From NCBI GenBank assembly GCA_031370565.1, contig JANMQO010000163.1:7576-71575 (forward strand): a DNA stretch of 64,000 nt, read 5' to 3'. Below are positions 9,912 through 55,652 of this stretch, piece by piece. Position 1 is the stretch's first letter; every line of letters begins with the position of its first letter. Both the position numbers and the translations under genes were made by a program. The stretch is from Chloroflexota bacterium (lineage in GTDB: Bacteria; Chloroflexota; Limnocylindria; Limnocylindrales; CSP1-4). The notes under the pieces are model-generated. The model was given only the letters and a program-made list of their open reading frames with translations. It searched no databases and was not told the origin of the DNA.

Positions 9912-9920
9912 GAGGCTCGG

Positions 9921-11345: not shown

Positions 11346-11367
11346 CCCAACGATAGTCGCCCGAACC

Positions 11368-11437: not shown

Positions 11438-11455
11438 CCCCGTTGGAGTCCGCCG

Positions 11456-13275: not shown

Positions 13276-13290
13276 AGGGTCGACCAGACA

Positions 13291-14244: not shown

Positions 14245-14254
14245 GAGGAGCGCG

Positions 14255-14998: not shown

Positions 14999-15022
14999 TC
15001 GACTCGGGGGCGAAATCGGGCA

Positions 15023-25021: not shown

Positions 25022-25047
25022 CCAGGAGATTCGGATTGCGACTTCGG

Positions 25048-30988: not shown

Positions 30989-31002
30989 GCGCGACGGGCC
31001 GA

Positions 31003-38798: not shown

Positions 38799-38936
38799 CG
38801 ACTCCTCCTACCTTCTGGGCCCCTGGACGGGACCGACCTTGTTTGACTGCATCGGAGCACCCGATGCTACTCGACGGCGAGCCTCGTGACGACCCCCACC
38901 AGAACGAACCGGCCGAGCCGCCCGTCGGCCGCCCTG

Positions 38937-39803: not shown

Positions 39804-40648
39804 CCCACTGCACCTTCCGCTGCGGTCCGCGCCGGCGAGCCCGGGCCACCGACCGTCGCGACCTGCGCCTGTGGTCCGTGCAGGGCTTCGCGCACCTGGG
39901 TCACCAGCCCGAAATAGCGCGGTTGCTCGCGCGTCTCGAAGCCACGTGGTCGAGGCAGGTCAGCCTCGATCACCTGGCTGATCCGGCCCGGTCGGGCGCT
40001 CATGACAACCACCCGTGACGACAGGAACACCGCTTCGGGGATGGAGTGGGTGACGAACACGATCGTGGTGCCGGTCCGCTCCCAGATCCGGAGCACCTCC
40101 GAGTTCATCCGTTCACGGGTCATCTCGTCGAGGGCGCCGAACGTTTCGTCCATGAGCTGGATCGACGGCTCGAAGGCGAGCGCCCGGGCGATCGCCACCC
40201 GCTGCTGCATGCCACCTGAGAGCTGGTACGGGTGGTGGCGCAGGAACCCCTGCAGCTCGACCAGCTCGAGCATCTCGCGGGCCCGGGCAATGCGTTCCGA
40301 CTTCGGCCGACCGAGGATCTCGAGCGGCAGCGCGACGTTTTCTTCGACCGTCCGCCAGTCGAACAGGACCGGCGCCTGGAAGACCATCCCGTAGTCCCGA
40401 TCGAGGCGCGCCCGGTGGGCCGTCTTGCCATTGACCGTGACCGTCCCGGCCGATGGCGTGGTGAGGTCGCCGATGAGCCGCAGCAGGGTTGACTTGCCAC
40501 AACCCGATGGGCCGATGAGCGACACGAATTCGCCTCGGCGGATCTCCAGGTCGATCCCCTGCAGCGCCTGGGTGCCAGCCTGGCCGGCGACCTCGAACGT
40601 CTTGTCGACGCCGGCGATCGTGACGACGGCGGGTGCGGACTCGGTCAT
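39800..40648 (-). CDS. ABC transporter ATP-binding protein (NitT/TauT family, SsuB/TauB-like)
   Basis: [37 protein letters not shown]. Confidence 0.8.
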   Translation of the reverse strand: MTESAPAVVTIAGVDKTFEVAGQAGTQALQGIDLEIRRGEFVSLIGPSGCGKSTLLRLIGDLTTPSAGTVTVNGKTAHRARLDRDYGMVFQAPVLFDWRTVEENVALPLEILGRPKSERIARAREMLELVELQGFLRHHPYQLSGGMQQRVAIARALAFEPSIQLMDETFGALDEMTRERMNSEVLRIWERTGTTIVFVTHSIPEAVFLSSRVVVMSARPGRISQVIEADLPRPRGFETREQPRYFGLVTQVREALHGPQAQVATVGGPGSPARTAAEGAVG

Positions 40649-40664
40649 GACTGGCTCGGACCTC

Positions 40665-41558
40665 TCAGACAGCCGGGGCTTGGCGACCGCGCAGGACGAG
40701 CGTCTCGACCAGACGGATCAGCAGGAAGAAGGCGATCCCGACCAGGGCGGACACGAAGATTGTCGCCCAGAGTTTGGCGGGAAATGTGATGTAGGCCTGG
40801 TTGAAGTTGATGATCGCGCGTCCCAGCCCGTCCGGGATGCCGCCCGGTCCTTCCCCGATGATCGCCCCGACGATGCTCGCCGTGGCCGAGATCTTGAGCG
40901 CGGTGAAGAGGTACGGCAGCGAGGCCGGCAGGCGCAGCTTGCGGTAGGTCGCCCAGCGCGAGCCCGCGTACGAGCGCATAAGCTCGAGCGCCCGCGGGTC
41001 GGGCGACCGCAGGCCCCGGATCCCGGCGATGGTCACTGGAAAGAAGGTCAGGTAGGTGGCGATGATGACGACCGAAACGACCGACTGGCCGAAGGCGAAG
41101 GCGATCATCGGGGCGAGCGCCACGATCGGGATCGTCTGGCTGGCGATGACGTAGGGCACGAACGCCCGCTCGAGCAGCCGGAAGTGGACGAACAGGCTGG
41201 CCAGACCCAGGCCCAGCGCGGCACCCAGGGCGAACCCGATAGCCGCCTCCCGCCAGGTGTAGAGCGCCGCGCCGACGAGGAACTGCCCCAGGCTGATCGG
41301 CGACTCGCGCTGGGCGGGCGCGCCGAACACCGAGACGATCGTCCAGACGTGCGGCAGGTTGAGGTCGCTCGCGAAAAAGATGCGCAGCGGCGGGTTCCAG
41401 AGAACCTGCTCGCCGCTGCGCCAGGGATCCCCACCGACGAACTTGACCCCCTCCCACAAGCCAAGGATGAGGACGAAGAAGCCCACGACGGTGAGCCCCT
41501 GGCGGACGAGCCCGGCCTGGCTGCCGGACTTGCCGAACCCGGCCCGTGGGCCTGCCAT
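40665..41558 (-). CDS. ABC transporter permease (second NitT/TauT-type membrane subunit)
   Basis: Six-TM permease. Its start abuts the aminotransferase stop (1-nt gap). Confidence 0.75.
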   Translation of the reverse strand: MAGPRAGFGKSGSQAGLVRQGLTVVGFFVLILGLWEGVKFVGGDPWRSGEQVLWNPPLRIFFASDLNLPHVWTIVSVFGAPAQRESPISLGQFLVGAALYTWREAAIGFALGAALGLGLASLFVHFRLLERAFVPYVIASQTIPIVALAPMIAFAFGQSVVSVVIIATYLTFFPVTIAGIRGLRSPDPRALELMRSYAGSRWATYRKLRLPASLPYLFTALKISATASIVGAIIGEGPGGIPDGLGRAIINFNQAYITFPAKLWATIFVSALVGIAFFLLIRLVETLVLRGRQAPAV

Positions 41559-42896
41559 CTAGCGGCGAACCGCCTCGTCCGCCAGCTCGAGGGCGGCGTC
41601 GATGATGGCGAAGCCCTCGTCGAGTTGCTGCTCGGTGATGCACAGCGGCGGATTGGTGTGGATCGAGTTGTTGGCGATCAGGGTGTACAGGCCGTGGTCG
41701 CGCAGGTACTTCCCGATGGCCTTCATCTCATCGCTCGTGCCGTTGAACGGCGTGAGCGGGTCGTACGGCTCGCGAGTGCGGACGAGGTCGATGATCCCGA
41801 ACAGGCCCAGGTTGCGATACGCCCCGACCGAGGGGTGGCGGGCATACAGCCGCTCGTGGTGGGCGCGCATGACCGGCCCGAGGCGAGCGGCGTTGTCGAT
41901 CAGGCCGTCCTCCTCGTAGACCCGGATCGTGGCGAGCGAGGCAGCCAGGCTGATCGGGTGGCTGCTGTAGGTCAGTCCGCCGTAGAACATCGTCGTGTCG
42001 AACTTCTCGGCGATCGCCCGACGCATCGCCACGGCGCCCAGCGGCAGGTACGAGCTGGTCAGGCCCTTGGCCATCGTCATCAGGTCCGGGACCACGCCGG
42101 CATGGTCCACCGCGAACCACTTGCCGGTCCGCCCGAAGCCGGCCATGACCTCGTCGGCGACCATCAGGATCTGGTGGCGATCGCAGATCTCGCGGACGCC
42201 CTGGAGGTAGCCATCGGGCGGGATGAGGATCCCGTTCGTGCCCACGATCGTCTCGAGGAAGACGGCGGCGATCGTATGGGCGCCCTCGTAGCGGATGACG
42301 TCCTCGAGGCCCTGCAGCGATTCGGCCACCGGGCGGGGCTCCTTCTCGCCCCAGCGGTGGGTGTCCGGATAGCGCACGACGCCCCAGATGCCGGGCTCGT
42401 TCGCCCAGCGGCGAGGATCGCCGGTCAGGGTCATGGCGCCCAGCGTGGCCCCGTGGTACGAGCGGTAGCGCGCCAGGATCTTGGTCCGGCCCGTGTAGTG
42501 GCGGGCCAGCTTGATCGCGTTCTCGATCGCCTCCGCGCCGCCGAGCGTGAAGAAGACCTTGTCCAGGTCGCCCGGCAGGATCTCGGCCAGCTTCGCCCCG
42601 AGCCGGGCCCTGGGTTCCGTGGCGAAGGCCGGCTGGACGAACTGCAGCTTCGTCGCCTGCTCGGTGATGGCGTCGATGACCCGCCGGTCCCCATGGCCGA
42701 TGTTGACCGACATGAGCTGGCTGTTGAAATCGATGATCCGGCGACCGTCGGGCGTATACAGGTAGATCCCCTCGGCCCGGTCGATGGCGATCGGGTCGAT
42801 GGCCCCCTGGACGGACCACGAGAAGAAGGTATGTTCGCGCGATAGCGCGACGATCTGCTCGCCGGTCAGTCGTTCAGGCAGGGTGGTGGTCGCCAT
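41559..42896 (-). CDS. class-III PLP aminotransferase (omega-transaminase; candidate beta-alanine/3-aminoisobutyrate--pyruvate transaminase by context)
   Basis: 445 aa, aspartate aminotransferase family. The substrate is assigned only by proximity to the pyrimidine-catabolism genes and mmsA. Confidence 0.75.
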   Translation of the reverse strand: MATTTLPERLTGEQIVALSREHTFFSWSVQGAIDPIAIDRAEGIYLYTPDGRRIIDFNSQLMSVNIGHGDRRVIDAITEQATKLQFVQPAFATEPRARLGAKLAEILPGDLDKVFFTLGGAEAIENAIKLARHYTGRTKILARYRSYHGATLGAMTLTGDPRRWANEPGIWGVVRYPDTHRWGEKEPRPVAESLQGLEDVIRYEGAHTIAAVFLETIVGTNGILIPPDGYLQGVREICDRHQILMVADEVMAGFGRTGKWFAVDHAGVVPDLMTMAKGLTSSYLPLGAVAMRRAIAEKFDTTMFYGGLTYSSHPISLAASLATIRVYEEDGLIDNAARLGPVMRAHHERLYARHPSVGAYRNLGLFGIIDLVRTREPYDPLTPFNGTSDEMKAIGKYLRDHGLYTLIANNSIHTNPPLCITEQQLDEGFAIIDAALELADEAVRR

Positions 42897-43218
42897 CGAA
42901 GCACCTCGAGTCCGTCGGTCCAGGCGGGCGGGGCCCTCGGTCTTCGGCCTCCGTCCGTATTCGGCCCCCGCGGTCTTCGGCCAGTGCGGCTGGCGCCCAC
43001 GGCGGGGGGTCGATGACGAGGAGCGCCTCAGTCGACTGCCGACCGCGACATCCCACCCTGCATCGGAGTGGTCATTAGATCACAATCGGGATGCGCCCGA
43101 CGTCTGGTCGGTGCGAGTCGGGGCGGGTCCGTGCGGTCCCCGGGGTCGTGGCGCCGCGCGCCCCCCAACGTGGGCTACCATGTCCGTACCTCGGATCGGC
43201 TGCACTGGCGAGGAACCC

Positions 43219-46155
43219 ATGCGCGCTCATCAGCCCCGGAGGGTCGCCGCCGCCCTCATCGCGAGCCTGTTCGCGGCCGGCCTCCTCGGCCCCGTCTCGA
43301 TCGCCCGTGCCACCATCAGCGTCCCGTTCGCCGCCGCCGGCACGGAACCGATCGGGCCGGGCACCGTCCACAGTTGGGGCCAACTCAGCACCGATTCGGC
43401 CGGCATCCAGGTGGTCAACCTAGTTGAGGCCAACCTGGCCGACCCGACCATCCATCTGGAGACGCTCCTCTCGAACGGGACGGCGACGGGCCTCGAGCCA
43501 ACCTCGGCCATGGCCACCAACGCCACGACCGAGGGCCACCGGGTGGTCGCCGCGGTCAACGGCGATTTCTGGAGCGGCCAGAGCGCTGGTGCCCTGGCCG
43601 CCCCGAACGGCCTGCAGGTGCACCTTGGCGAGCTGCTCGTGGCGCCGCGCGGTGGTCGCCCCGCGATCGGGGTCAGCGCCGGGGGCGTGGCCCAGATCGG
43701 AACGGTGACCGAGCGGCTCACGCTCGACACCGGCGCCGGCGTGCTCCTCTCGATCACGCGCATGAACCAGGCCCGCGGCGGCGCTGACCTTGTCCTGTAC
43801 ACCCCCCGGTTCGGCGTTGCCACGGCGACGACGGATGGCGGGACGGAGGTGGTCCTGACGGGCGTCGCCGGGCCGATCGGGCCGAACGGCTCCTACCCGG
43901 CCACGGTCCAATCGATCACGGTCGGGACCGGCAACGCAGCGCTCGCCCCGGGCACGGTCGTGCTGTCCGGAGCCGGTGCCGGCGCAACCGCACTGAGCGC
44001 CCTGATCCCGGGCCAGAGCGTGACCCTGACCACGGCGATCACGCCCGGCTGGGAGAGCGTGACGGAGGCGATCAGCGGGGGCCAGTGGCTGGTCCAGGCT
44101 GGCCAGGTCAACGTGTCACCGCCGTGGTACGCGGCGACCCAGCATCACGCTCGAACGGGCGTCGGGCTGACCGCCGATGGGCGCCTGCTGCTGGCCACCG
44201 TCGATCGCGGTCCCGGTGGCTACAGTGGCGGCGTCCGCCTCGACGAATTCGCCCAGCTGTTCCTCGGCCGGGGGGCGGTGACCGCCATCAACCTTGACGG
44301 TGGCGGCTCCACGACGATGGTCGCACGACGGCCCGGCGACGAACTCGCCTCGCTGGTCAACCGCCCGTCGGACGGCCAGGAGCGCTACGTTTCGAACGCG
44401 CTGGCGCTAGTCAGCACGGCGGCCACCGGACCACTGGCCGGGATCGGCATTCGACCGGCACCGAGCCGGCTCGTCCTGGGAACCTCCACGGCATTCACGG
44501 CTGTCGGCTGGGACGCGGCGATGAACGGGGTGGTGGTCGATCCAGGCAGCGTCGGCTGGTCGGCCAGCGCCGGCACGATCGACGCCAGCGGACACTTCCA
44601 GGCCAGCGCCCCTGGCCCGATCACCATCCAGGCGAGCGCTCAGGGCCAGGTCGGCCAGCTGTCCGCGGAGGTCGTGGCCGACACGATCCCGCCGGTCGCG
44701 GGTGCCCCATACCTGTCGTTCCTGCCGAACGCGCAGGCCGGCCAGCAGCGCATCTGGGTCCGGGTGGACTGGCCCGCCGCGACGGATATCGGCAGTGGGG
44801 TGGCAGCGTACGGGCTGTGGTTGAGCACGGACGACGGTCCCTACGTGGCAGTGCCGTTGTCCGCCCCGCTGGTCCGCTCGACCACCCTGCAGCTCGCCCC
44901 CGGACCGGCCTATCGATTCGCCGTGGACGCCACGGACGCCGCCGGCAATGTCGGGGCGAAGGTGGCCGGCAACCTCGTCCGGCAACTCGCGGTCCAGGAA
45001 ACAGGCGGTGCCATCACCTACAGCGGACCCTGGGTCCGGGGGGTGGGCACCGGCTACTACGGCGGGGGGATCCGGACCGCCTATTCGGCCCGGGCGAACG
45101 CTGCGTTCCGTTTCAGCGGCTCGGACGTCGCCTGGGTGTCTGCGCTCGGCCCGACCCGCGGCTCCGCGCAGGTGCTGCTCGACGGCAAGCTCGTGGCCAC
45201 CATCGACTTGTTCCGCCCGACCAACGTCGGTCGACGAGTCGTGTATCGCGCCGGCTGGCCGACCATCGGCAGCCATCGGCTGGAAGTCCGACCGCTGGCC
45301 ACGACGGGCCACCCAAGGGTCGATATCGACGCGTTCCTGATCGAAACCGACGCGGCCGCAGACCCGGTCCTCGTCGGGGCCGGCGACATTGCCGCCTGCG
45401 GGACGACCGGTGCCAGCTTCACAGCGGCGCTCATCAAGACGATCCCCGGCACGGTCTTCACGGCGGGCGACAACGCCTACCCGGTGGGCTCAGCGGCCGA
45501 CTTCGCCAACTGCTACGACCCGACCTGGGGCGCGTTCAAGGCGCGCACCCGACCGGCGCCCGGCAACCACGATTGGGTCACGCCAGGAGCAGCCGGCTAC
45601 TTCAGCGCGTTCGGGCCACGTGTCGGTTCGTCCAGCGCCAGCTGGTACGCCTACAACCTGGGCAGTTGGCGGATCTACGCGCTGGACAGCGACTGCGATC
45701 AGCAGGGCGGCTGCGGCAGCGGCTCGCCGATGGAGGCATGGCTGCGTCGAGACCTCGCGGCCAACCCACGCCAGTGCGTCCTGGCATATTGGCACCATCC
45801 CCGCTTCAGCTCCGGCATCCACGGCAACGCCACCAACATGCAGACGATCTGGGCGGACCTGCAGACGGCTGGCGCCGAGATCGTGATCAATGGTCACGAT
45901 CATGACTACGAGCGGTTCGCGCCACAGAATGCGACCGGCGGCCTGGACTTGGCCCATGGCATGCGCGAATTCGTGGTCGGCACCGGCGGCGCCGAGCTGC
46001 GCTCGTTTGCCACCGTCCAGCCGAATAGCCAGGTTCGCCGGGCCGGCGTCCTGGGCGTCCTCAAGCTGATCCTCCGGCCAGCCGGCTACGAATGGTCGTT
46101 CATTCCGGTGGCCGGTTCGTCCGGAGCCGACAACGGCTGGGGCTCCTGCCACTGA
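43219..46155 (+). CDS. secreted multidomain protein: signal peptide, phosphodiester glycosidase (NAGPA/DUF2233-like), Ig/FN3-like repeats, C-terminal calcineurin-like metallophosphoesterase
   Basis: Signal peptide MRAHQPRRVAAALIASLFAAGLLGPVSIARA. AINLDGGGSTTM is a phosphodiester-glycosidase motif. The C-terminal GDIAACG...GDNAY...GNHDW...WHHP...GHDHDYER are metallophosphatase motifs I to V. The 145-codon upstream part of the track ORF overlaps the AT gene and was rejected. Confidence 0.75.
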   Translation: MRAHQPRRVAAALIASLFAAGLLGPVSIARATISVPFAAAGTEPIGPGTVHSWGQLSTDSAGIQVVNLVEANLADPTIHLETLLSNGTATGLEPTSAMATNATTEGHRVVAAVNGDFWSGQSAGALAAPNGLQVHLGELLVAPRGGRPAIGVSAGGVAQIGTVTERLTLDTGAGVLLSITRMNQARGGADLVLYTPRFGVATATTDGGTEVVLTGVAGPIGPNGSYPATVQSITVGTGNAALAPGTVVLSGAGAGATALSALIPGQSVTLTTAITPGWESVTEAISGGQWLVQAGQVNVSPPWYAATQHHARTGVGLTADGRLLLATVDRGPGGYSGGVRLDEFAQLFLGRGAVTAINLDGGGSTTMVARRPGDELASLVNRPSDGQERYVSNALALVSTAATGPLAGIGIRPAPSRLVLGTSTAFTAVGWDAAMNGVVVDPGSVGWSASAGTIDASGHFQASAPGPITIQASAQGQVGQLSAEVVADTIPPVAGAPYLSFLPNAQAGQQRIWVRVDWPAATDIGSGVAAYGLWLSTDDGPYVAVPLSAPLVRSTTLQLAPGPAYRFAVDATDAAGNVGAKVAGNLVRQLAVQETGGAITYSGPWVRGVGTGYYGGGIRTAYSARANAAFRFSGSDVAWVSALGPTRGSAQVLLDGKLVATIDLFRPTNVGRRVVYRAGWPTIGSHRLEVRPLATTGHPRVDIDAFLIETDAAADPVLVGAGDIAACGTTGASFTAALIKTIPGTVFTAGDNAYPVGSAADFANCYDPTWGAFKARTRPAPGNHDWVTPGAAGYFSAFGPRVGSSSASWYAYNLGSWRIYALDSDCDQQGGCGSGSPMEAWLRRDLAANPRQCVLAYWHHPRFSSGIHGNATNMQTIWADLQTAGAEIVINGHDHDYERFAPQNATGGLDLAHGMREFVVGTGGAELRSFATVQPNSQVRRAGVLGVLKLILRPAGYEWSFIPVAGSSGADNGWGSCH

Positions 46156-46234
46156 GCCGCCGCGCTCCACCCGGCCAAGGGTGTACCCTCACCACTTCTT
46201 CCTGCCACCACACCCGCTTGACGTGAGGGTCGAG

Positions 46235-47086
46235 ATGCCGCGAATCGTCCGAGGAGCCCTGGTCCAGGCAACCTGGACCGGGGACAAGGAATCGATGATC
46301 CAGAAGCACGAGGCGCATGCCTACGAAGCGGCTCGGCAGGGCGCCCAGATCATGCTCTTCCAGGAACTGTTCTACGGACCCTACTTCTGCCAGGTCCAGG
46401 ACCCCCAGTACTACAGCTACACCGAGCTCATCCCGGACGGCCCGACCACCCGGCGGATGCAGGACCTGGCCAAGCAGACGGGGATGGTCCTGGTCGTCCC
46501 GATGTATGAAGAGGACGGCACCGCCAGCGGGATGTACTACAACACCGCCGCGGTCATCGACGCGGACGGCCGCTACCTGGGCAAGTACCGCAAGACCCAC
46601 ATCCCGCAGGTCAAGGGCTTCTACGAGAAGTTCTACTTTCGGCCCGGCAACCTGGGCTATCCGGTCTTCGAGACCGCCGTGGGCAAGGTCGGCGTGTACA
46701 TCTGCTATGACCGCCACTTCCCGGAGGGTGCCCGGGCGCTGGGTCTGAACGGCGCGGAGATGGTATTCATCCCGAGTGCCACCAGCCGTGGCCTGTCCGA
46801 GTATCTGTGGCGCATCGAGCAGGTCAGCCACGCGGTCGCCAACGGCTACTTCGTGGGGACGATCAACCGAGTTGGCATCGAGGCGGACTACGGCGACGAC
46901 GACTTCTACGGGCAGAGCTACTTCGTCAACCCACGCGGCCAGTTCATCGGTGAGGTCGGCAGCGCCCATGACGAGGAGCTCATGATCCGGGAGATGGACC
47001 TCGATATGGTCACCGAGGTGCGCCAGACCTGGCAGTTCTATCGCGATCGACGACCGGACGCCTACGCGGACCTGGTCCGACCGTAG
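46235..47086 (+). CDS. beta-ureidopropionase (nitrilase superfamily, eukaryote-like type)
   Basis: The E-K-C triad context is ...FQELFYGPYFC..., GKYRKTHIP, ICYDRHFPE. FIPSATSRGLSEYLWRIEQVSHAVANGYFVGTINRVGIE closely parallels human UPB1 ([41 protein letters not shown]). ATG 46235 has a GAGGG SD. Confidence 0.8.
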   Translation: MPRIVRGALVQATWTGDKESMIQKHEAHAYEAARQGAQIMLFQELFYGPYFCQVQDPQYYSYTELIPDGPTTRRMQDLAKQTGMVLVVPMYEEDGTASGMYYNTAAVIDADGRYLGKYRKTHIPQVKGFYEKFYFRPGNLGYPVFETAVGKVGVYICYDRHFPEGARALGLNGAEMVFIPSATSRGLSEYLWRIEQVSHAVANGYFVGTINRVGIEADYGDDDFYGQSYFVNPRGQFIGEVGSAHDEELMIREMDLDMVTEVRQTWQFYRDRRPDAYADLVRP

Positions 47087-47116
47087 GCGGCCCGCCAAGC
47101 GGAGGACCTCGCCTCG

Positions 47117-48127
47117 ATGCAGTTTGGATTCACACTCAAGCCGAGCCACTCGATCGAGCGCACGCTGACGCTCACCCGGCAGGCCGAGGCCGCCGGATTC
47201 GCGTACGGCTGGCTGTTCGACTCGCACGTCTTGTGGCGGGACCCGTACCCGTTGCTGACCCTCATGGCGGGCGCCACCGAGCAGTTGCGCCTGGGCACCT
47301 GCGTGACGAACCCGGCGACCCGCGAACCGTCGGTGACGGCCTCGGCTCTGGCCGTCCTCGATGAGCTGAGTGGCGGCCGGATGGACCTGGGCATCGGTCG
47401 AGGGGACTCGGCGCGACGAGTCCTGGGCAAGCCACCGACCACGATGGCCACCCTCGAGGAGGCGATCGGCGTCATCCGCGACCTCGTCGAGGGCCGCACC
47501 GTGACCTACGAAGGGACGGAGCTCAACCTGCCCTGGACGGGATCGTGGAAGCTGCCCGTGTGGGTCGCGGGCTACGGCCCGATGGCGCTGGCCATGACCG
47601 GACGGGTGGCCGATGGCGTCATCCTGCAGCTGGCCGACCCGGACCTCATCCGCTGGTTCGTCGGCCAGATCCGTGCGGCGGAGGCAGCGGCCGGCCGCCC
47701 GGCGGGCTCGGTCCAGGTGCAGTCGGCCGCACCGGCCCACTTCGGCGATCTCGAACTGTGCCGCGAGCGGACGCGCTGGTTCCCGGCGCTCGTCAGCAAC
47801 CATGTCGTCGACCTGGTCAACAAATACCCGCGCGAACGGCTGCCCGAATCGCTCACGGGCTACGTCCGCGACCGGGCCGGCTACGACTACCTCCATCACG
47901 CCGAAGTCGGCTCGTCCAACGCCGGTTTCGTGGGCGACGACGTGACGGATCGCTTCTGTGTCCTCGGTAGCGTGGCTGACCACCTGGCCAAGCTGCACGA
48001 ACTGGCGGACGCCGGGGTCGACCAGTTCAACATCTACCTGATGAACGGGGATGAGGAAGCGGTCCTCGAAGCGTACGGGCGGGAAATCATCCCGGTGATG
48101 CGGGATGTCGCGGCCGCCCGGGCCTAG
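47117..48127 (+). CDS. luciferase-like monooxygenase (LLM) family, F420-dependent oxidoreductase type
   Basis: 336-aa TIM-barrel LLM. The N-terminal MQFGFTLKPSHSIERTLTLTRQAEAAGFAYGWLFDSHV and the GIGRGDS block are typical of the F420-dependent LLM class. Confidence 0.7.
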   Translation: MQFGFTLKPSHSIERTLTLTRQAEAAGFAYGWLFDSHVLWRDPYPLLTLMAGATEQLRLGTCVTNPATREPSVTASALAVLDELSGGRMDLGIGRGDSARRVLGKPPTTMATLEEAIGVIRDLVEGRTVTYEGTELNLPWTGSWKLPVWVAGYGPMALAMTGRVADGVILQLADPDLIRWFVGQIRAAEAAAGRPAGSVQVQSAAPAHFGDLELCRERTRWFPALVSNHVVDLVNKYPRERLPESLTGYVRDRAGYDYLHHAEVGSSNAGFVGDDVTDRFCVLGSVADHLAKLHELADAGVDQFNIYLMNGDEEAVLEAYGREIIPVMRDVAAARA

Positions 48128-49940
48128 GCGACTGGACGCGCCGATCACGAACGACAGCCCGGCCGCCGCTGATCCGGAGGCGGCGGTCCGGATCGTGCTT
48201 CTTGGGCCGCCACGGGTCGAAGCGGACGGCGGACGGCGCCGCCTGCCGGGGCACAAACCCTGGGCGCTCCTGACGATCCTCCTCCTGGAGTCGGCCGGCT
48301 CGACCAGACGCGAGCTGGCGGAGCGCATCTGGCCCGCCGCGGACAATCCACTCGGCGCCGTCCGCTGGGCGCTGCTCCAGGTCCGCCGAGCCATCGCACC
48401 AGCGCGGGTCGATGAGGTCGACGGTCGACTGCGCATCGCCAACCGCGCGGCGCTCGCCGTGGACGCCGATGTTGTCCTGGCGGGCAGGTTGGAGGCTTCC
48501 GATGCTGACCGCATCGTGGGCGGCGACCTACTCGAAGGGTTCGCCTTCGATGGCGCGCCGAATCTGGAGCAGTGGCTGGCGCTGCAGCGCGCCCGCGTCC
48601 GTTCGGCCAGTGCCGAAGGGCTGCGCTGGGCCGCCACGGTGCTGTCCGACGCAGATCCCGAGCGGGCCATCTCCCTGGCAGAGCGCGCCGCGCAGCTCGA
48701 CCCGTTCGACGACGCCGTCCACGAGCTGATCGTCTACTGCCATGTCCGGCGCGGTGACCGGCGCGCCGCCCGGGACCACGTCGAGCGCACAACACGCCTG
48801 TACCGGGCCGAACTGGACGAAGACGCGCCACTGTCCATCGCACGGCCACTGGAGCGGCCTTCGACGATCGATCGAGACGACGTCAGCTTGTCGACGGCCG
48901 ATCCGTCGCTGACCGGTGGCCTCGAGGCGGCGACGCTCCTCGAGCTGGCCCGGATGCGACTCGAGAGCGGCGACTACGACTCCGCGGTCGAGCTGGGGCG
49001 GCGGGCTGTCGCGGCGGCGGCGGCGGGGCGGGACGGCGCCCTCGAGGGCCGGGCCACGCTCGATCTGGCCACAACCCTTATCCACTCCGTTCGCGGTCGG
49101 GACCGGGAGGCCCACGGCCTGGTTCGGCGCGCGCTGCAGCTGGCCACGGCACTGGGTGATCGCGGGATGGCCGCCGATGCCGAGCGCGAGATCGGCTACC
49201 TGCACTTCCTGGAGGCGGACTATGGCGCCGCTGAGGCCGCCCTGGAACGAGCCATCCGGATCGCGACGCTGGACGGTAACCAGGTCGCACTGGGAAGGGC
49301 TCTCACGATCCTGGGCGCCTGCCGCTCGGACCGCGCGGACTATGCGTCGGCGGAGCCCACCCTGCGACTGGCCGTCGACCGATTGATCGAGGTCGGCGAC
49401 GAGCGCTGGCGTGCGTATGCACTGTCATTCATCGCACGGGTCGAACTCCGCACAGGCCGAGTAGAGCAGGCGCTGCTGACGGCGACCGCGTCGATCGCGG
49501 CGGCGCGCGCCTCTGGTTGGCTATCCTTGGTGCCTTGGCCGATGGCCATTCTGGGCGAAGCACAGCTGCTCGGGGCCGACATCCGGTTGGCCTCGGCCAC
49601 CTTCGGCCAGGCCTATCTCCTGGCCCGTGAAATCGGCGATCCGTGCTGGCAGGCCGTCGCCCTGCGTGGCATGGCGCTCGTCGCGCAACAGGACGGCGAT
49701 CCGGATCGCGCCCGCGGGCTGCTGGCACAGGGCCTGCGCTGCGCGCGCGAACAGCCGGACACATACACTTGGGCGACGGCGGCGCTCCTGACCGATCTGG
49801 TCGGCCTGGAGGGTGGCGCGAGCCGAGCGCACCTGGCTGAGGCCATTCGGATCGTCACGCGGGGTCCCATGGCGGACTTGGCCAGGCGGGTTTTGGACGC
49901 AGCCAGCTCGCAAACGCTGGACCAAACGGTCGATCCGTAG
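48105..49940 (+). CDS. SARP/AfsR-family regulator (OmpR-type wHTH plus BTAD) with C-terminal TPR repeats
   Basis: VRIVLLGPPRVEADGGRRRLPGHKPWALLTILLLESAGSTRRELAERIW, BTAD-like helices, then TPR-like Ala/Leu-rich repeats. The start is uncertain (48105 overlaps the LLM gene by 23 nt; GTG 48195 is an alternative). Confidence 0.7.
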   Translation: MSRPPGPRRLDAPITNDSPAAADPEAAVRIVLLGPPRVEADGGRRRLPGHKPWALLTILLLESAGSTRRELAERIWPAADNPLGAVRWALLQVRRAIAPARVDEVDGRLRIANRAALAVDADVVLAGRLEASDADRIVGGDLLEGFAFDGAPNLEQWLALQRARVRSASAEGLRWAATVLSDADPERAISLAERAAQLDPFDDAVHELIVYCHVRRGDRRAARDHVERTTRLYRAELDEDAPLSIARPLERPSTIDRDDVSLSTADPSLTGGLEAATLLELARMRLESGDYDSAVELGRRAVAAAAAGRDGALEGRATLDLATTLIHSVRGRDREAHGLVRRALQLATALGDRGMAADAEREIGYLHFLEADYGAAEAALERAIRIATLDGNQVALGRALTILGACRSDRADYASAEPTLRLAVDRLIEVGDERWRAYALSFIARVELRTGRVEQALLTATASIAAARASGWLSLVPWPMAILGEAQLLGADIRLASATFGQAYLLAREIGDPCWQAVALRGMALVAQQDGDPDRARGLLAQGLRCAREQPDTYTWATAALLTDLVGLEGGASRAHLAEAIRIVTRGPMADLARRVLDAASSQTLDQTVDP

Positions 49941-49994
49941 GGTTCATCGCCAGAGTCGGGCTCATTGCCGACCGCAGGAGCAGGAGGACGAACG

Positions 49995-50240
49995 ATGCAG
50001 TTCATGGACGTGCACAACGGGTTCGTAGGGGTGACGGCGGAGCAGCTCCAGGCCGCGCACGACGCGGATCTGGCCATCGAGGCCGAGGAGGGCGTCCATT
50101 TCCAGCAAGCCTGGCTCGACCCGGTCAGCGGCAAGGTCTTCTGCTTGGCCGAAGGCCCGAGCAAGGAGGCGGTCCAGCGCATCCACACGCGCGCCGGTCA
50201 CCCCGCCGATGAGATCCACGAGCTGACCGTCTCCGTCTGA
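49995..50240 (+). CDS. DUF4242-family small protein (SCO4226-like)
   Basis: AGGAGGA SD 6 nt upstream. MQFMDVHNGFVGVTAEQLQAAHDADLAIEAEEGVHFQQAWLDPVSGKVFCLAEGPSKEAVQRIH resembles DUF4242 members. Confidence 0.6.
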   Translation: MQFMDVHNGFVGVTAEQLQAAHDADLAIEAEEGVHFQQAWLDPVSGKVFCLAEGPSKEAVQRIHTRAGHPADEIHELTVSV

Positions 50241-50333
50241 GCACAGCGCGGGAGCGGGGTGACGTGCGGTACCCCGCTCCATCCTCCACAATGACGGACA
50301 TGAACCGGCGCCGCCCCTGCGGAGGAAATCTCG

Positions 50334-51731
50334 ATGCGCACACTCATCACGAATGGCACCATCGTTAGTGCGGACGGCTCGACCATCGCCGACGTGCTCA
50401 TCGACGGCGAGATCATCGTCCAGATCGGCCGAGACCTGGTCGGCGCCGGGGTGACGGCCGACGAGACGATCGACGCGACGGGCCGGTACGTGATCCCTGG
50501 CGCCATCGACGTCCATACGCACATGGAGCTGCCCTTCGGCGGAACGTCCGCCAAGGACACCTTCGAGACGGGCACCCGGGCGGCGGCGTTCGGCGGGACG
50601 ACCTCGATCGTCGACTTTGCGGTCCAATCGCGCGGCAAATCGCTCCGGGAGGGGCTTGACGCCTGGCACGCCAGGGCCGAGGGCAACGCGGTGGCCGACT
50701 ACGGGTTCCACATGATCATGTCCGACGTGAATGACGCGACCCTGGCCGAGATGGACCAGTTGGTCGCTGAGGGCGTGCCCGATTTCAAGCTGTTCACCGC
50801 CTACCCGGGCGTCTTCTACAGCGACGATGGGGCGATCTTCCGGGCGATGCAGCAGACCCGCCGCAACGGCGGACTGATCATGATGCATGCCGAGAACGGG
50901 ATGGCCATCGACGTCGTCGCAGCCGACGAGATCGCGGCCGGCCACACGGACCCGTACTACCACGGTGTGGCCCGCCTGCCCATCTTCGAGGGGGAGGCGA
51001 CCAACCGAGTCATCCGCCTGGCCGAGGCGGCCGGCGTGCCCGTGTACATCGTCCACCTCTCGGCGCGCGACGCGCTCAACGCCGTGCGCGAGGCGCGCGA
51101 TCGCGGCGTCAAGGCGTACGCGGAGACCTGCCCGCAGTACCTGTTCCTGTCGCTGGACGACATGGCCAACGGCTTTGAGGGCGCGAAGTTCGTCTGCTCG
51201 CCGCCCCTGCGGACTGCCGACCACCAGGCGGAGCTGTGGACCGGACTGGTCAAGGACGACCTGCAGCTGGTCGCGACCGACCATTGCCCGTTCGACTTCC
51301 ACGGCCAGAAGGAACTCGGCCGGGGCGACTTTCGCAAGGTCCCCAATGGTCTGCCTGGCGTCGAGGATCGAGTCGACCTGCTCCACGATGGCGGCGTGGT
51401 CGGCGGCCGGATGACCCGTGAGCGCTGGGTTGAGGTGATCTCCACGGCACCGGCCAGGATGTTCGGCATGTACCCGCGCAAAGGCTCGGTCTCGATCGGC
51501 GCCGATGCTGACCTGGTGATCTACGATCCGAACGCCCGCCGGACGATCAGCGCGGCCAGTCACCACATGAACGTCGACTACTCGTGCTATGAGGGCCGCG
51601 AGGTCCAGGGGCGCGCCGACATCGTCCTGTCGCGCGGTTCGATCATCGTCCGCGACGGCCAGTTCACCGGCCGCAAGGGCCACGGCCAGTTCATCCGACG
51701 CGCCCCCGCCGAGTTCGCGCGCAACAACTGA
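50334..51731 (+). CDS. dihydropyrimidinase / D-hydantoinase (cyclic amidohydrolase)
   Basis: GGAGGA SD. GAIDVHTHMELPFGGT metal-binding motif and carbamylated-Lys region. 465 aa. Confidence 0.85.
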   Translation: MRTLITNGTIVSADGSTIADVLIDGEIIVQIGRDLVGAGVTADETIDATGRYVIPGAIDVHTHMELPFGGTSAKDTFETGTRAAAFGGTTSIVDFAVQSRGKSLREGLDAWHARAEGNAVADYGFHMIMSDVNDATLAEMDQLVAEGVPDFKLFTAYPGVFYSDDGAIFRAMQQTRRNGGLIMMHAENGMAIDVVAADEIAAGHTDPYYHGVARLPIFEGEATNRVIRLAEAAGVPVYIVHLSARDALNAVREARDRGVKAYAETCPQYLFLSLDDMANGFEGAKFVCSPPLRTADHQAELWTGLVKDDLQLVATDHCPFDFHGQKELGRGDFRKVPNGLPGVEDRVDLLHDGGVVGGRMTRERWVEVISTAPARMFGMYPRKGSVSIGADADLVIYDPNARRTISAASHHMNVDYSCYEGREVQGRADIVLSRGSIIVRDGQFTGRKGHGQFIRRAPAEFARNN

Positions 51732-51861
51732 CGAGCGGGCCGGCGTGGCCTGCTGGCTCGGCTCGTGGTGGCGGCTCCGCGCGGCGGCTTGGCGTGCCGG
51801 CTCGGCTCGGCTCGGCTAGGCCAGACCCGCCCGCCGGCCGGCTCAGTGGTTCGGTTCGGGA

Positions 51862-53406
51862 CTACCGGCTGCGCGGAAAGCCCAGATCCACCGTGGACGT
51901 GCCCGGGTCCGGCCAGCGCGACGTCACCACCTTTGTCCGGGTGTAGAACTGGATGCCGTCCGGTCCGTACATGTGCAGGTCGCCGAACAGCGACGCCTTC
52001 CAGCCACCGAACGAGTAGTACGCCACCGGTACCGGGATCGGCACGTTGACCCCAACCATCCCGACACTCACGTCGAACTGGAATTGGCGGGCCGCGCCTC
52101 CGTCCCGGGTGAAGATGGCCGTGCCGTTGCCATACGGGTTGTCGTTGATGAGACGGAGCGCCTCCTCATACGTGTCCACCCGGACGATGTTGAGGACCGG
52201 CCCGAAGATCTCGTCCCGATAGCAGTCCATCTCCGGAGTGACGTCATCGATGAGCGAGACACCCAGGAAGAACCCGTCGCGCTGGTACGCCGGATCCTCG
52301 CGGCCGTCGACCACCACCGAGGCCCCCTGTTCGCGCCCGCTGTCGAGGTACGAGGCCACCTTGTCGCGGTGCTCCCGAGTGACCAGCGGCCCCATCTCGG
52401 ACGCCGGATCGGACCCGTCGCCCACCCGGATCTTGGGCAGCCGCGCTCGGATCGCGGCGACCAGCGGGTCCGCCACGCCGCCGACCGCGACCAGCGCCGA
52501 GATCGCCATGCAGCGCTCCCCCGCCGAGCCGTACGCCGCCGACACCGCCGCATCGGCGGCCATCTCGATATCCGCGTCCGGCAGCACGATCATGTGGTTC
52601 TTGGCGCCGCCGAGCGCCTGCACCCGCTTGCCGTTGCGCGTGCCCGTCTCGTAGATGTAGCGGGCGATCGGCGTCGAGCCCACGAACGAGACAGCGGCAA
52701 TGTCCGGGTGGGCCAGGATGGCGTCCACGGCGACCTTGTCTCCGTTGACCACGTTGAACACGCCGTCTGGCAGGCCCGCCTGCTTGAGCAGCTCGGCCAT
52801 CAGCATGGACGCGCCCGGATCCTTCTCGGACGGCTTGAGGATGAAGGTGTTGCCACAGGCGATCGCGTTGGCGAACATCCACATCGGCACCATCGCAGGA
52901 AAATTGAACGGTGTGATCCCGGCGACCACACCCAGCGGCTGGTGGATCGAGTAGACGTCGACGCCGGTCGAGGCCTGCTCCGAGAAGCTGCCCTTGAGCA
53001 ACTGCGGGACGCCGCAGGCGAACTCGATGTTCTCCAGCCCGCGGGCCACCTCACCCAGCGCATCCGAGGTCACCTTGCCGTGCTGCGCCGTGAGCAGCGC
53101 CGCGAGATCCCGGCGGTGCTCGTGGACGAGCTGTCGAATCGTGAACAGGATCTCCGAGCGCTTCGAGAGCGATGTCGCGCGCCACGCCGGAAAGGCCGCC
53201 CTGGCCGTCTGAACGGCGAGATCGAGTTCTTCAGCGCTGGCGAAATCGACCGCGTGCGTCTGCGCGCCGGTGGCCGGGTTGAAGACGGGTCCCTGGCGGC
53301 CCGACGTGCCGACCCTCAGCGTCCCGCCGATCCAATGGTTGATCCGGCTCGGGGCGTCCGAGTCGGACGTCTCTCCGGCGGCTCGCGATGCGGCGACCTG
53401 CGTCAT
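51862..53406 (-). CDS. mmsA: methylmalonate-semialdehyde dehydrogenase (CoA-acylating)
   Basis: ALDH with the MMSDH-specific ALGGAKNHMIVLPDAD, VGVNVPIPVPVAYYSFGGWKASLFGD and HMYGPDGIQFYTRTKVVTSRW blocks. Confidence 0.85.
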   Translation of the reverse strand: MTQVAASRAAGETSDSDAPSRINHWIGGTLRVGTSGRQGPVFNPATGAQTHAVDFASAEELDLAVQTARAAFPAWRATSLSKRSEILFTIRQLVHEHRRDLAALLTAQHGKVTSDALGEVARGLENIEFACGVPQLLKGSFSEQASTGVDVYSIHQPLGVVAGITPFNFPAMVPMWMFANAIACGNTFILKPSEKDPGASMLMAELLKQAGLPDGVFNVVNGDKVAVDAILAHPDIAAVSFVGSTPIARYIYETGTRNGKRVQALGGAKNHMIVLPDADIEMAADAAVSAAYGSAGERCMAISALVAVGGVADPLVAAIRARLPKIRVGDGSDPASEMGPLVTREHRDKVASYLDSGREQGASVVVDGREDPAYQRDGFFLGVSLIDDVTPEMDCYRDEIFGPVLNIVRVDTYEEALRLINDNPYGNGTAIFTRDGGAARQFQFDVSVGMVGVNVPIPVPVAYYSFGGWKASLFGDLHMYGPDGIQFYTRTKVVTSRWPDPGTSTVDLGFPRSR

Positions 53407-53536: not shown

Positions 53537-54463
53537 TCAGAACGGCGGCGGACGATCCGGATCCGGCCAACTGAGCGTCGATCCAGGCGCGTTGGCATTG
53601 GGCGGCGGAGTGCCGGTGCGTGCCGACCGGCGGACCACCAGCACCAGAACGACCGCCGAAAGCAGCGCGATGGCGAGATCGAGCACCTGCTCGGTGCGCA
53701 ACGGCCCCCACGCCGGCTGGTCTCGCCAGACGGCGGCCGTCCCGACCCGAACGGCCGCCCAGCCGCCGAGCGCCAGCGAAAACGCCCGCCCGTCGCCCGA
53801 GCGGAAGGCGCCCGCGTCCCAGGCCAGGGTCACGATGAGCAGGACCAGGGCGATGCCGAGCGCTTCGTACACCTGCGCCGGGTGCGACGGGACCTCCGGG
53901 CCGAGGCTGCCCCACGGCCCGGTCCCCAGGTAGCGGGTCGCCCAGGCGAGGTTCGAGGGCAGACCCTGACCGGTGCCACCGAGCGCGAGCGCCAGCTTGC
54001 CCAGTCCCAGGGCGAGCAGCAGCGGCGCTGCGGCCAGATCGAACCAGCGACCGAGCGGCTCGTCGAAGAGACGGGCGACGAGGGCGCCAGTCAGGCTGCC
54101 GAGCAGGACGGCCCCCGACAGCGCCAGGCCGCCGCTGGTCGGATCGAGGATGGCAGCCCGGTTCGCGGCGTAGTAGTCGAGGTGCACCAGCACGTAGTTG
54201 AGCCGACCGCCGAGCACGGCGCCGGGCACGACCCCGAGCACGACCAGGAGCAGATCGTCGCGGCGGAGGTGGTGCGGGGCCGACGCCGGCCGGTGCGGGT
54301 GCGGGAGCGAGGGCAGCCGGATTCGCCCGGCAAGGACCGCGGCCAGGACCAGCGCAACCAGCACGGACCCGCCGATCGCGAGCGTCTCCCAGCGGATGAG
54401 TCGATCGCCGAGATGGAGGTTGGGGTCGAACTGGAAGGTGATGAGGGCGGTCGGCACGTCCAT
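53537..54463 (-). CDS. lgt: prolipoprotein diacylglyceryl transferase
   Basis: The internal ATG 54463 gives a 308-aa membrane protein with Lgt-like GGLALSGAVLLG and HPAQVYEALG blocks. Longer overlapping track ORFs were rejected. Confidence 0.7.
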   Translation of the reverse strand: MDVPTALITFQFDPNLHLGDRLIRWETLAIGGSVLVALVLAAVLAGRIRLPSLPHPHRPASAPHHLRRDDLLLVVLGVVPGAVLGGRLNYVLVHLDYYAANRAAILDPTSGGLALSGAVLLGSLTGALVARLFDEPLGRWFDLAAAPLLLALGLGKLALALGGTGQGLPSNLAWATRYLGTGPWGSLGPEVPSHPAQVYEALGIALVLLIVTLAWDAGAFRSGDGRAFSLALGGWAAVRVGTAAVWRDQPAWGPLRTEQVLDLAIALLSAVVLVLVVRRSARTGTPPPNANAPGSTLSWPDPDRPPPF

Positions 54464-54857
54464 TGCAGTGTAGCGGTCGGTGGTCCCACGACGAATGGGG
54501 CGTCGGGACCAGCGGCGTGCCTCTCTCGACGACGGCCTGGCACTCCAAGGTGTCGGCGGGCCGACACCTTGCCTGTCGGTTCGCGGCTGCCGGGCACACG
54601 ACGTCTCGCCCGATAGTCGACCCAAGCGACGCGAGAGGGAACCCTGGGGGGCTCCTCTCCAGTGTCGACCGCGGCCGGGGGGTCGCCGGAGGGGGGCCTC
54701 GGCAAGGGTCGTCGAAGGCTGTTGGAGACCGATGCACGGCCCCGCAATGGGGGGCGGCCGGGCATCGGTCTCGCAGCAACGGGGAGAGGCAGTGGAACGG
54801 ACACGCGCCCTGAACCAACATCCGACGACCGTCGACGGCGCGGCACCAGGCCCGCCA

Positions 54858-55652
54858 ATGCTCGGTATCCACCTGTTCGGGCGCGTCGAACTGCGCGTCG
54901 GCGATAGAGACGTTCGCCTGCGATCTCGGGCGGCCCAGGCCCTGATCGCGCTGCTCGTGCTGACACCCCGCATTCGAACCCGCGAAGCGGTCGCCGCCGA
55001 ACTCTGGCCGGACAGCGAGGGTGGCGGCGTCGCCGCGTCGATGCGCCAGGCTCTGTGGCATCTGCGGTCGGACTTCGTGTCGGCCAACCTGGCACTGGAC
55101 AGCTACCTCCACATCGAACCGGACGCCATTGGATTGCGGCCGGACGCGCCGGTCAGTCTCGACGTGGATCGCTTCGAGGCGTGCCTGCGTGGACACCCGC
55201 CACGGCTCGAGGATGCGCTCCTCCTCTATCGTGGAGACTTGGCGGAGTGGCTCGGGCTGGAGTGCTTCGCATCCGATCGTGAGCGCCTGTCCGACGCCTA
55301 CGAGGACGCCCTGGCGCTCGTCGCCCAGGAGCGCTTCGAGGCTGGCAGCGCGGAGGGGGCGCGGGAGACCGCCCTTGCCCTGCTCGCCCGCGACCCGCTC
55401 CGCGAGGAGGGCCACGCGACGCTCCTCCGGGTGTTCGGCCGTGCCGGCTCGCGCACGCATGTCGTCCGACAGTATCGCCGCCTCGCCGAGTTGCTCGATC
55501 GGGAACTCGGCGTCGAACCGCTGCCGGAGACGGTCGCGGCGTATCGAGTGGCGCTGGCCGACACGTTTGAACAATCGCGCCGGCGCAGCCTGGGCGCCGC
55601 TCTCGCCGCGGTGGGTGGTCGCAACGGGATCGGGGTCATCGCCCGCAGCTGA
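54858..55652 (+). CDS. SARP-like regulator (OmpR-type wHTH plus BTAD), short form
   Basis: MLGIHLFGRVELRVGDRDVRLRSRAAQALIALLVLTPRIRTREAVAAELWPD, then BTAD helices. The start is chosen at the Met preceding the wHTH. Upstream Met residues are possible. Confidence 0.6.
   Translation: MLGIHLFGRVELRVGDRDVRLRSRAAQALIALLVLTPRIRTREAVAAELWPDSEGGGVAASMRQALWHLRSDFVSANLALDSYLHIEPDAIGLRPDAPVSLDVDRFEACLRGHPPRLEDALLLYRGDLAEWLGLECFASDRERLSDAYEDALALVAQERFEAGSAEGARETALALLARDPLREEGHATLLRVFGRAGSRTHVVRQYRRLAELLDRELGVEPLPETVAAYRVALADTFEQSRRRSLGAALAAVGGRNGIGVIARS

Follow-up and report, generated by a model that had tools for sequence, protein, structure and literature searches.

The reductive pathway of pyrimidine catabolism opens with a two-electron reduction of the C5=C6 bond, and only then does dihydropyrimidinase act on the ring. 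This article is about an enzyme that may carry out that first step in a branch of the Chloroflexota. The DNA in question is a stretch of 64,000 nucleotides (the window, from here on) from a soil Chloroflexota bacterium of the order Limnocylindrales, contig JANMQO010000163.1. Within it is a gene cluster that encodes the later steps of the pathway and, in their midst, a luciferase-like (LLM) oxidoreductase of the type that works with the deazaflavin cofactor F420. What this oxidoreductase does is our subject.

Genes in the window, the DNA of which is ~70% G+C, were chosen by third-position GC, and ~55 open reading frames (ORFs) were annotated with Pfam and NCBIfam (Table 1). An earlier note on this DNA, made from the sequence alone, had described a reductive uracil/thymine pathway here, and the genes it named are present where it put them or within a few codons. 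Most of that pathway stands. The dihydropyrimidinase (PydB), the CoA-acylating (methyl)malonate-semialdehyde dehydrogenase (MMSDH) and the class-III aminotransferase, a PRK06062 protein, score above the cutoffs of their families, and the dihydropyrimidinase matches solved D-hydantoinases and dihydropyrimidinases in the PDB at 504–520 bits. The nitrilase-superfamily amidase is the part that stands by context. Its best NCBIfam match, aguB, falls below cutoff (267 bits versus 410), and its matches in the PDB are to N-carbamoylputrescine amidohydrolase (207 bits) and to the β-ureidopropionases of Drosophila (181 bits) and human (170 bits); it is from the company it keeps that we give it the substrate of a β-ureidopropionase (PydC). 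Context also supplies the amine substrate of the aminotransferase, which we propose to be a β-alanine/β-aminoisobutyrate transaminase. The amidase ORF is open from a GTG at 46181 (46181–47086), with an in-frame ATG at 46235 preceded, at a distance of 8 nt, by a GAGGG motif; the LLM gene has a GGAGGA motif ahead of its ATG. Missing from the earlier list was an ATP-binding cassette (ABC) importer (37641–41558). It belongs to the pyrimidine cluster, and we propose that it is the nucleobase uptake system.

Table 1. Genes of the pyrimidine cluster and its immediate surroundings (positions are those of the window).
Feature	Position	Strand	Domain or family match
upp	36747–37484	+	
NMT1/THI5-type binding protein of ABC importer	37641–38798	−	Pfam PF09084
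ABC importer permease	38937–39803	−	Pfam PF00528
ABC importer ATPase	39800–40648	−	Pfam PF00005
Second ABC importer permease	40665–41558	−	Pfam PF00528
Class-III (omega) aminotransferase	41559–42896	−	PF00202, 303 bits; PRK06062, 529 bits (cutoff 472)
Large NAGPA/metallophosphatase-domain protein	42784–46155	+	PF09992, PF00149
Nitrilase-superfamily N-carbamoyl amidase (CN_hydrolase)	46235–47086	+	PF00795, 217 bits
LLM oxidoreductase	47117–48127	+	PF00296, 207 bits; TIGR03842, 427.5 bits
TPR-repeat protein	48105–49940	+	TPR_12 and TPR_2 only
SCO4226-like small protein	49965–50240	+	PF14026 (ex-DUF4242), 89 bits
Dihydropyrimidinase/D-hydantoinase (PydB)	50334–51731	+	TIGR02033, 578.7 bits (cutoff 393.25)
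CoA-acylating (methyl)malonate-semialdehyde dehydrogenase (MMSDH)	51862–53406	−	TIGR01722, 724 bits (cutoff 448.5)
Prolipoprotein diacylglyceryl transferase (Lgt), C-terminal half of ORF	53537–55087	−	
ORF with BTAD (SARP-type) transcriptional activator domain	54480–55652	+	PF03704, 55 bits, residues 242–356

When the pathway is tallied, the cluster accounts for all its steps but the first, and only one conserved enzyme, the LLM protein, is left without an assigned step. It is also the only redox enzyme of the operon besides MMSDH. The claim that the window holds no PreT/PreA or PydA-like enzyme was upheld: Escherichia coli K-12 PreT and PreA, searched by tblastn against all six frames, found nothing better than E = 2, and no DHO_dh/iron-sulfur or GltD-like architecture occurs among the ~55 annotated ORFs. 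The genes of the E. coli reductive uric-acid pathway were searched against the window and all the related loci described below, where only hyuA, a dihydropyrimidinase paralogue, has matches, apart from a single match to yqeA. Reading the dihydropyrimidinase of the window as a HyuA of the purine pathway was rejected, since ygeW, ygeX, ygeY, ygfK, ssnA, ygfM and xdhD are absent from the window.

The LLM protein belongs to TIGR03842 (CPS_4043), a family of LLM-class F420-dependent oxidoreductases that carries the status of ‘hypothetical equivalog’. Its score of 427.5 bits (cutoff 295.45) comes from residues 2–328 aligned to profile positions 1–329. Next in line are two equivalogs for Mer, NF002619 (151.4 bits, cutoff 276) and TIGR03555 (135.1 bits, cutoff 348.7), both below cutoff. 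Expressed as E-values, the match is 3e-128 for TIGR03842, 4e-44 for Mer and 1e-12 or weaker for the FMN-type LLM families, the last being more than 100 orders of magnitude behind the first. No RutA model appears in the best 25 of 31 NCBIfam matches. Sequence comparison with solved structures also leads to Mer (108–125 bits; Methanopyrus kandleri Mer, 91 bits), followed by F420-dependent hydroxymycolate dehydrogenase, FGD and Adf. An AlphaFold2 model built from 33 homologues (pLDDT 88.5, pTM 0.89) has the expected PF00296 fold, a (β/α)8 barrel with a helical insertion. The best 24 Foldseek matches to this model in the PDB are all F420-dependent LLMs, with Mer first (TM ~0.8, 29–30% identity) and TM values of 0.76–0.82 across Mer, FGD and Adf. 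The family score, these structural matches and the site motifs we turn to now all agree with the F420-type class to which the enzyme had first been assigned.

We aligned the protein to Mer from Methanocaldococcus jannaschii (jMer) and read the alignment against a mutational study of that enzyme (PMC11094777). In jMer, a VTNP loop after β3 holds a non-prolyl cis-peptide under the deazaflavin (PMC11094777); the LLM protein has C62-V63-T-N-P where jMer has G61-V62-T-N-P, the cis conformation itself not being something a sequence can reveal. The two loops that clamp the tail of F420 in jMer have counterparts too, GIGRGD for GIGPGD after β4 and YGP for QGP after β5. Asp96, which in jMer is contacted by the pyrimidine ring of the pterin substrate (PMC11094777), is Asp97 in our protein, and the carboxamide at the end of β6 is retained as Gln171. 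The catalytic residue is another matter. Glu6 sits at the end of β1 in jMer, where the E6Q variant retains 0.4% of kcat (PMC11094777); the LLM protein has Thr6, and position 6 is unconserved in its family.

Conservation across the family points to the same site and to one more region. Among 143 aligned family members that are linked to the pathway there are 70 invariant columns, and these include the F420-site motifs: V63, T64, N65, P66, G94, G96, D97, G154 and P155 are the same in 143 of 143. The invariant residues specific to the family are concentrated in the helical lid (221–261), namely W221, F222, N228, H229, R253, Y256, D257, Y258 and H261. His37 and Gln171 are invariant too. From the sequence, then, we would describe the protein as a Mer-like enzyme of F420 type with a distinctive, polar and strongly conserved substrate lid. 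It is predicted not to be a Mer, because Glu6 is absent and both Mer equivalog scores are below cutoff, and it falls outside the clades of characterized F420 LLMs with a proven substrate. The family is large, with at least ~8,000 close homologues returned by each of two homology searches. A neighbor-joining tree of family representatives is star-like, with the members of known context scattered over it, and was not used as evidence.

Genomic context is where the argument gains its weight. The 80 best genomic matches to the LLM gene (77–89% identity) were taken with 10 kb on either side and searched with the proteins of the window by tblastn. Almost all come from Chloroflexota metagenome-assembled genomes (MAGs) labelled Candidatus Limnocylindria, Limnocylindrales or ‘Chloroflexia’, which sets aside the actinobacterial host implied by the earlier note. 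Of the 80 loci, 73 contain the amidase and 58 dihydropyrimidinase; the aminotransferase occurs in 41, the gene for the ABC ATPase in 33 and that for MMSDH in 29. Since contigs are often short, we call a locus well covered if the LLM gene is flanked by 5 kb or more on each side. By this measure (n = 42) the amidase is present in 41/42, dihydropyrimidinase in 41/42, both in 40/42 and the aminotransferase in 30/42. The genes are also close together: a median of 120 bp separates the amidase gene from the LLM gene, and dihydropyrimidinase lies within 200 bp of the LLM gene in 13 loci. Several loci keep the wider synteny of the window, including upp and an asparaginase-II gene.

Three genes in the window do not follow this pattern. 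The TPR and NAGPA proteins have no full-length tblastn match near the LLM gene in any of ~180 related loci, and the SCO4226-like protein is found in 0/80 Limnocylindria loci, with a single match (locus L144) among the other related loci. Because full-length counterparts are missing in this way, the NAGPA, TPR and SCO4226-like genes look like lineage-specific insertions rather than members of the unit, and they appear to have entered an otherwise compact operon recently. In two of the Limnocylindria loci, L003 and L007, the aminotransferase and amidase genes are adjacent and divergent, with no NAGPA gene between them. The TPR and DUF4242 genes had been noticed before as lying between the two amidohydrolases, and so they do; it is as parts of the unit that they fall away. 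Nor is the TPR protein a SARP regulator, as it had been labelled. TPR repeats are all it has: a threshold as loose as E ≤ 0.1 brings up neither a BTAD nor an HTH domain, and the real BTAD domain is in the ORF at 54480–55652.

Two relatives of the LLM protein turn up under other phylum names, in a MAG labelled Verrucomicrobiia (L013) and in Methylomirabilota (P0120). Both are 85–86% identical to the window protein, and L013 carries the whole Limnocylindria-type cluster. The explanation is either that the operon was recently transferred horizontally or that sequences were wrongly binned.

Synteny among close relatives could simply be inherited, and for that reason the search was extended beyond them by an exhaustive comparison with representatives of 50%-identity clusters. 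This yielded full-length relatives at 34–51% identity, and most of those tested score above the TIGR03842 cutoff. Among them is a second clade, in the Actinomycetota, whose members are 43–47% identical to the LLM protein of the window and include one (P0299) from the cultured Aquihabitans sp. G128 (CP077604.1) and others from Ilumatobacteraceae MAGs. Besides the Aquihabitans genome, a closed MAG labelled Chloroflexia (OY970185.1) is among the complete genomes with the operon. The representative of this clade (P0125) is 45% identical and scores 574 bits against TIGR03842. Its genes run co-directionally in the order CN_hydrolase, dihydropyrimidinase, MMSDH, LLM and then the same four-gene importer (permease, ATPase, permease, NMT1 protein), which is a re-ordering relative to the window and puts MMSDH immediately upstream of LLM. 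The dihydropyrimidinase (TIGR02033, 538 bits) and MMSDH (700 bits) again score well. A PRK06062 aminotransferase (745 bits) is near the operon in the Aquihabitans locus and is variably present in the clade. We sampled 80 metagenomic loci of this clade, 16 of them well covered, and the latter hold the amidase in 16/16, dihydropyrimidinase in 15/16, MMSDH in 14/16 and the aminotransferase in 11/16. The link between the LLM gene, the amidase and dihydropyrimidinase is not a chance neighbourhood, because it is kept in two phyla, at 43–47% LLM identity, with the genes in a different order. No PreT/PreA match at E ≤ 1e-3 was obtained by tblastn in the 179 related loci (10 kb on either side of the LLM gene, 2.13 Mb in total).

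Deeper branches of the family are informative as well. In a third deep branch, represented by P0131 (42% identical), the LLM gene overlaps a CN_hydrolase gene by 4 nt. In P0156 (41% identical; JGI 3300056388), it is directly downstream of a gene of the cytosine/cytidine deaminase family. A second LLM gene follows, and genes for an M20 peptidase and an IclR regulator precede the group. M20 enzymes are the other known type of β-alanine synthase. The P0156 locus could be a variant of the same pathway, with a feeder from cytosine to uracil and an M20-type β-alanine synthase. In both branches the linkage of the LLM gene is with the upper, ring-handling part of the pathway.

P0144 (39% identical; loci L097–L099) has an LLM gene between an amidohydrolase of the TRZ/ATZ superfamily and a CN_hydrolase. 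Here the operon reads NMT1 ABC importer, TRZ/ATZ amidohydrolase, LLM, CN_hydrolase, FAA_hydrolase, second LLM, CoA transferase, a hydantoinase-like protein that scores below cutoff, and a GSA-like aminotransferase, and its products may degrade some other N-heterocycle by a reductive route. The TRZ/ATZ amidohydrolase was considered as an SsnA and rejected (90–96 bits against cutoffs of 444–455, 25% identity over 146 residues). The LLM gene of P0221 clusters with another hydantoinase-like protein, and those of P0123, P0130 and P0151 are on unrelated or uninformative short contigs. In some operons a second, different LLM-family gene stands beside the TIGR03842 gene (L083, 9950–10822; L094, 951–1838; L089, 1646–2986); such pairs hint that some variants carry out F420 or flavin chemistry in two steps. 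Across the family, TIGR03842 LLMs are repeatedly tied to hydrolases of cyclic amides and N-carbamoyl compounds, and two large clades are embedded in pyrimidine sets that are complete but for the reductase.

Our reading, to which we would give a probability of about 0.6, is that the LLM protein is an F420H2-dependent uracil/thymine reductase that replaces dihydropyrimidine dehydrogenase (PydA or PreT–PreA). The same replacement had been suggested in the earlier note as plausible, and those parts of the suggestion that can be tested in silico, the linkage in two phyla and the lack of PreT/PreA in the flanks among them, have come out in its favour. The reading starts from things observed: what the flanking enzymes are, that no canonical dihydropyrimidine dehydrogenase lies nearby, that the protein has the fold and motifs of an F420 LLM, and that the linkage is deep and independent of gene order. 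From these we infer what the substrate is, which way the reaction runs, that F420 is the cofactor, and with what geometry hydride and proton are delivered. We lean, a shade less firmly, toward a broader proposal, that the pyd-linked clades of TIGR03842 form a third class of dihydropyrimidine dehydrogenase, free of both iron-sulfur clusters and flavin, in which F420H2 donates hydride directly to uracil or thymine, and that sister branches reduce other N-heterocycles.

The pathway would run as follows. A nucleobase would be imported by the NMT1-type ABC system. The LLM enzyme would then move a hydride from C5 of F420H2 to C6 of uracil or thymine, the β-carbon of the enone formed with the C4 carbonyl, after which an active-site acid would protonate C5 to give 5,6-dihydrouracil or dihydrothymine. 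The ring carbonyl and NH groups may be bound by the invariant polar residues of the lid and by Asp97, a choice of residues that we infer. Dihydropyrimidinase would open the ring, and the nitrilase-type amidase would release β-alanine or β-aminoisobutyrate together with NH3 and CO2. The class-III aminotransferase would convert these to malonate or methylmalonate semialdehyde, from which MMSDH would make acetyl-CoA or propionyl-CoA. F420H2 is an obligate hydride donor, and its potential is a little lower than that of NAD(P)H; its reduction of uracil should thus be feasible.

Other explanations deserve a hearing. The enzyme might reduce a related N-heterocycle, such as a 5-substituted uracil, orotate or an unsaturated hydantoin or imidazolone, the cluster then serving the use of ‘cyclic ureides’ while the reduction of uracil would fall to a canonical dehydrogenase encoded elsewhere, or would not take place. 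TIGR02033, after all, covers D-hydantoinases too, and nitrilase-type amidases include D-carbamoylases. Moreover, the substrate probably varies within the LLM family, because its branches sit beside different cyclic amidohydrolases (TRZ/ATZ-type in L097, hydantoinase-like and below cutoff in L097 and L181). We nevertheless regard this explanation as unlikely, given that both large clades hold a downstream set specific for β-alanine and β-aminoisobutyrate (the PRK06062 aminotransferase and an MMSDH scoring 700–724 bits), that dihydropyrimidinase is far above its equivalog cutoff and that PreT/PreA were not found in 2.1 Mb of flanks. A role further down the pathway, or in the recycling of cofactors, for instance as an F420-dependent malonate-semialdehyde/3-hydroxypropionate oxidoreductase analogous to PydE or RutE, strikes us as decidedly improbable. 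Several characterized F420 LLMs among the structural neighbours are indeed alcohol or carbonyl oxidoreductases (FGD, Adf, hydroxymycolate dehydrogenase), and the LLM gene directly follows MMSDH in the Actinomycetota operon. Yet the semialdehyde is already consumed by MMSDH, the closest relatives are Mer rather than FGD or Adf, and divergent branches keep the LLM gene with the amidase or with cyclic amidohydrolases even where MMSDH and the aminotransferase are gone. The first step of the pathway would also be left unfilled.

RutA, the pyrimidine oxygenase of the Rut pathway, is likewise a luciferase-like protein, which raises the thought that the LLM protein is an oxygenase of the RutA kind, using FMN in an oxidative attack on the pyrimidine ring. 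The odds of this seem to us very slim. Neither the E-values of the FMN-type families nor the best 24 structural matches, F420 enzymes to the last, lean that way; the window annotation has no flavin reductase or other Rut gene; and dihydropyrimidinase would be without a substrate. Finally, the nearest characterized homologue being Mer, one might see a Mer-like reductase of C1 carriers, or an unrelated enzyme, whose position is a historical accident. With the catalytic Glu6 absent and both Mer scores below cutoff, and with a linkage that survives 55% sequence divergence, two phyla and a changed gene order, chance is no explanation, and the statistics of conservation effectively refute it.

Several considerations weigh against a uracil/thymine reductase, and they should be set out together. 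The searches for PreT/PreA covered the window and the flanks of the LLM genes, and a canonical PydA or PreTA elsewhere in these genomes would make the LLM enzyme auxiliary. Pairs of D-hydantoinase and carbamoylase can also act on 5-substituted hydantoins, which require no reductase. The function of every member of TIGR03842 is a prediction, and the family is not mono-functional, as some members near or above its cutoff occur in other contexts (P0123, P0130, P0151, P0144). The active-site acid is hypothetical, and the residues named for binding uracil are candidates. As for the cofactor, the 64-kb annotation includes no F420 biosynthesis gene (cofC/D/E/G/H or fbiA/B/C). A 2021 review of F420 enzymes records F420 production, shown biochemically, in Chloroflexi and Actinobacteria; that Limnocylindria, and the organism of the window in particular, make F420 is an assumption carried over from such reports for the wider phylum.

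The surroundings of the cluster add some detail. To the right of MMSDH lie the BTAD ORF and the Lgt ORF, both of which the third-position GC filter had missed. Counterparts of the two (cluster 13, in 9 Limnocylindria loci, and cluster 7, respectively) adjoin MMSDH in other Limnocylindria loci, and the BTAD protein may be a local regulator of the pyrimidine operon. A scan of 41–54 kb for promoters and terminators gave nothing above the expectation from shuffled sequence, and Rfam and tRNA scans of the whole window had no match. Further afield, a crcB fluoride channel gene and a DUF190 gene sit together at 9228–10319; no fluoride riboswitch or other Rfam family reaches gathering score in the window despite the crcB gene. 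The left half of the window (10434–15000, 23699–25653 and 29957–31698) is rich in genes of the phosphate regulon: PstS, PstC, PstB, PhoU, a HisKA sensor kinase, PhoU_div (DUF47), a PHO4-family phosphate transporter and an OmpR-type response regulator, with phosphoesterase genes (GDPD, Exo_endo_phos, His_Phos_1) interspersed among them.

Why should any of this matter? If the reading is right, the large ‘hypothetical equivalog’ family TIGR03842 would gain a function, and reduction of a nucleobase ring would be a new class of reaction in F420 biochemistry. F420 would acquire a role in the nucleobase catabolism of Chloroflexota and Actinomycetota that are abundant in soil and freshwater. The gap that leads automated annotation to call pyrimidine catabolism ‘incomplete’ in Limnocylindria and Acidimicrobiia, both common in those habitats, would also be filled. 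An oxygen-tolerant, iron-sulfur-free uracil reductase of a single subunit could serve biocatalysis, in variants of the hydantoinase process and in the production of β-amino acids, and, by analogy with PreTA of gut bacteria, such enzymes could bear on the microbial fate of fluoropyrimidines. The prediction is directly testable with one purified protein and a standard F420H2 assay. As to novelty, the earlier note had supposed the route to be undescribed. In the full-text literature that is openly searchable we came across no account of a uracil or thymine reductase that depends on F420; a prior description in subscription-only papers is possible. The comprehensive 2021 review of F420 enzymes does not mention uracil and lists no reductase of nucleobase rings.

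How does the enzyme compare with known systems? A parallel in its proposed role comes from a 2025 paper on reductive uric-acid degradation, in which the SsnA clusters of Chloroflexota carry a putative F420 LLM, a ‘yanthine reductase’, where others have a YgfK or PydA homologue (PMC12507026). Going by its description, that protein too is a PF00296 F420 enzyme in the YgfK/PydA slot, responsible for the reductive dearomatization of a uracil-type ring. It differs in belonging to a purine pathway, and was itself proposed from bioinformatics only. Our window has no homologue of SsnA, XdhD or YgfK, and the sole neighbour of the SsnA superfamily among LLM relatives, that in L097, is not an SsnA orthologue. 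The chemistry has a precedent in LxmJ, an F420H2-dependent dehydroalanine reductase of the LLM/LLHT fold that reduces a C=C bond conjugated to an amide carbonyl (2021 review of F420 enzymes). As described, it shares with the proposed reductase its fold, its F420H2 and an amide-conjugated C=C bond, but its substrate is a peptide and its business is lanthipeptide biosynthesis. Reduction of the uracil C5=C6 bond itself is known from the mureidomycins, where SSGG-03002/NpsU, a putative F420/FMN oxidoreductase, is genetically required; the paper obtained no activity in vitro and leaves the fold family unstated. Again by description, that enzyme of mureidomycin/napsamycin biosynthesis differs from ours in acting on a uridyl-peptide antibiotic.

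Structurally the closest system is Mer (EC 1.5.98.2). The two share a TIM barrel with a helical lid at TM ~0.8, and 29–30% identity over the full length rises to ~40%, judged by eye, over the first ~200 residues. They have in common the VTNP loop, the GIGxGD and GxGP loops for F420, the aspartate at 97 (96 in jMer) and the carboxamide that ends β6. They part company at position 6, in the lid, where the LLM set is specific to its family, and in their context, which is C1 metabolism for Mer and pyrimidine catabolism for the LLM enzyme. With dihydropyrimidine dehydrogenase (PydA, PreT–PreA of E. coli, PydAc of clostridia) matters are the other way round. The proposed reaction is the same and so is the slot, upstream of PydB and PydC, but sequence and fold are unrelated, and the FMN/FAD and 4Fe-4S domains of the canonical enzyme are absent from the LLM protein. 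One draws on NAD(P)H or ferredoxin through an iron-sulfur wire; the other would take hydride directly from F420H2. The reductive pathway and the LLM superfamily are both already known. The novelty would lie in a non-orthologous first enzyme for the pathway, in the cofactor used at that step and in the class of substrate, a new one for F420-dependent LLMs.

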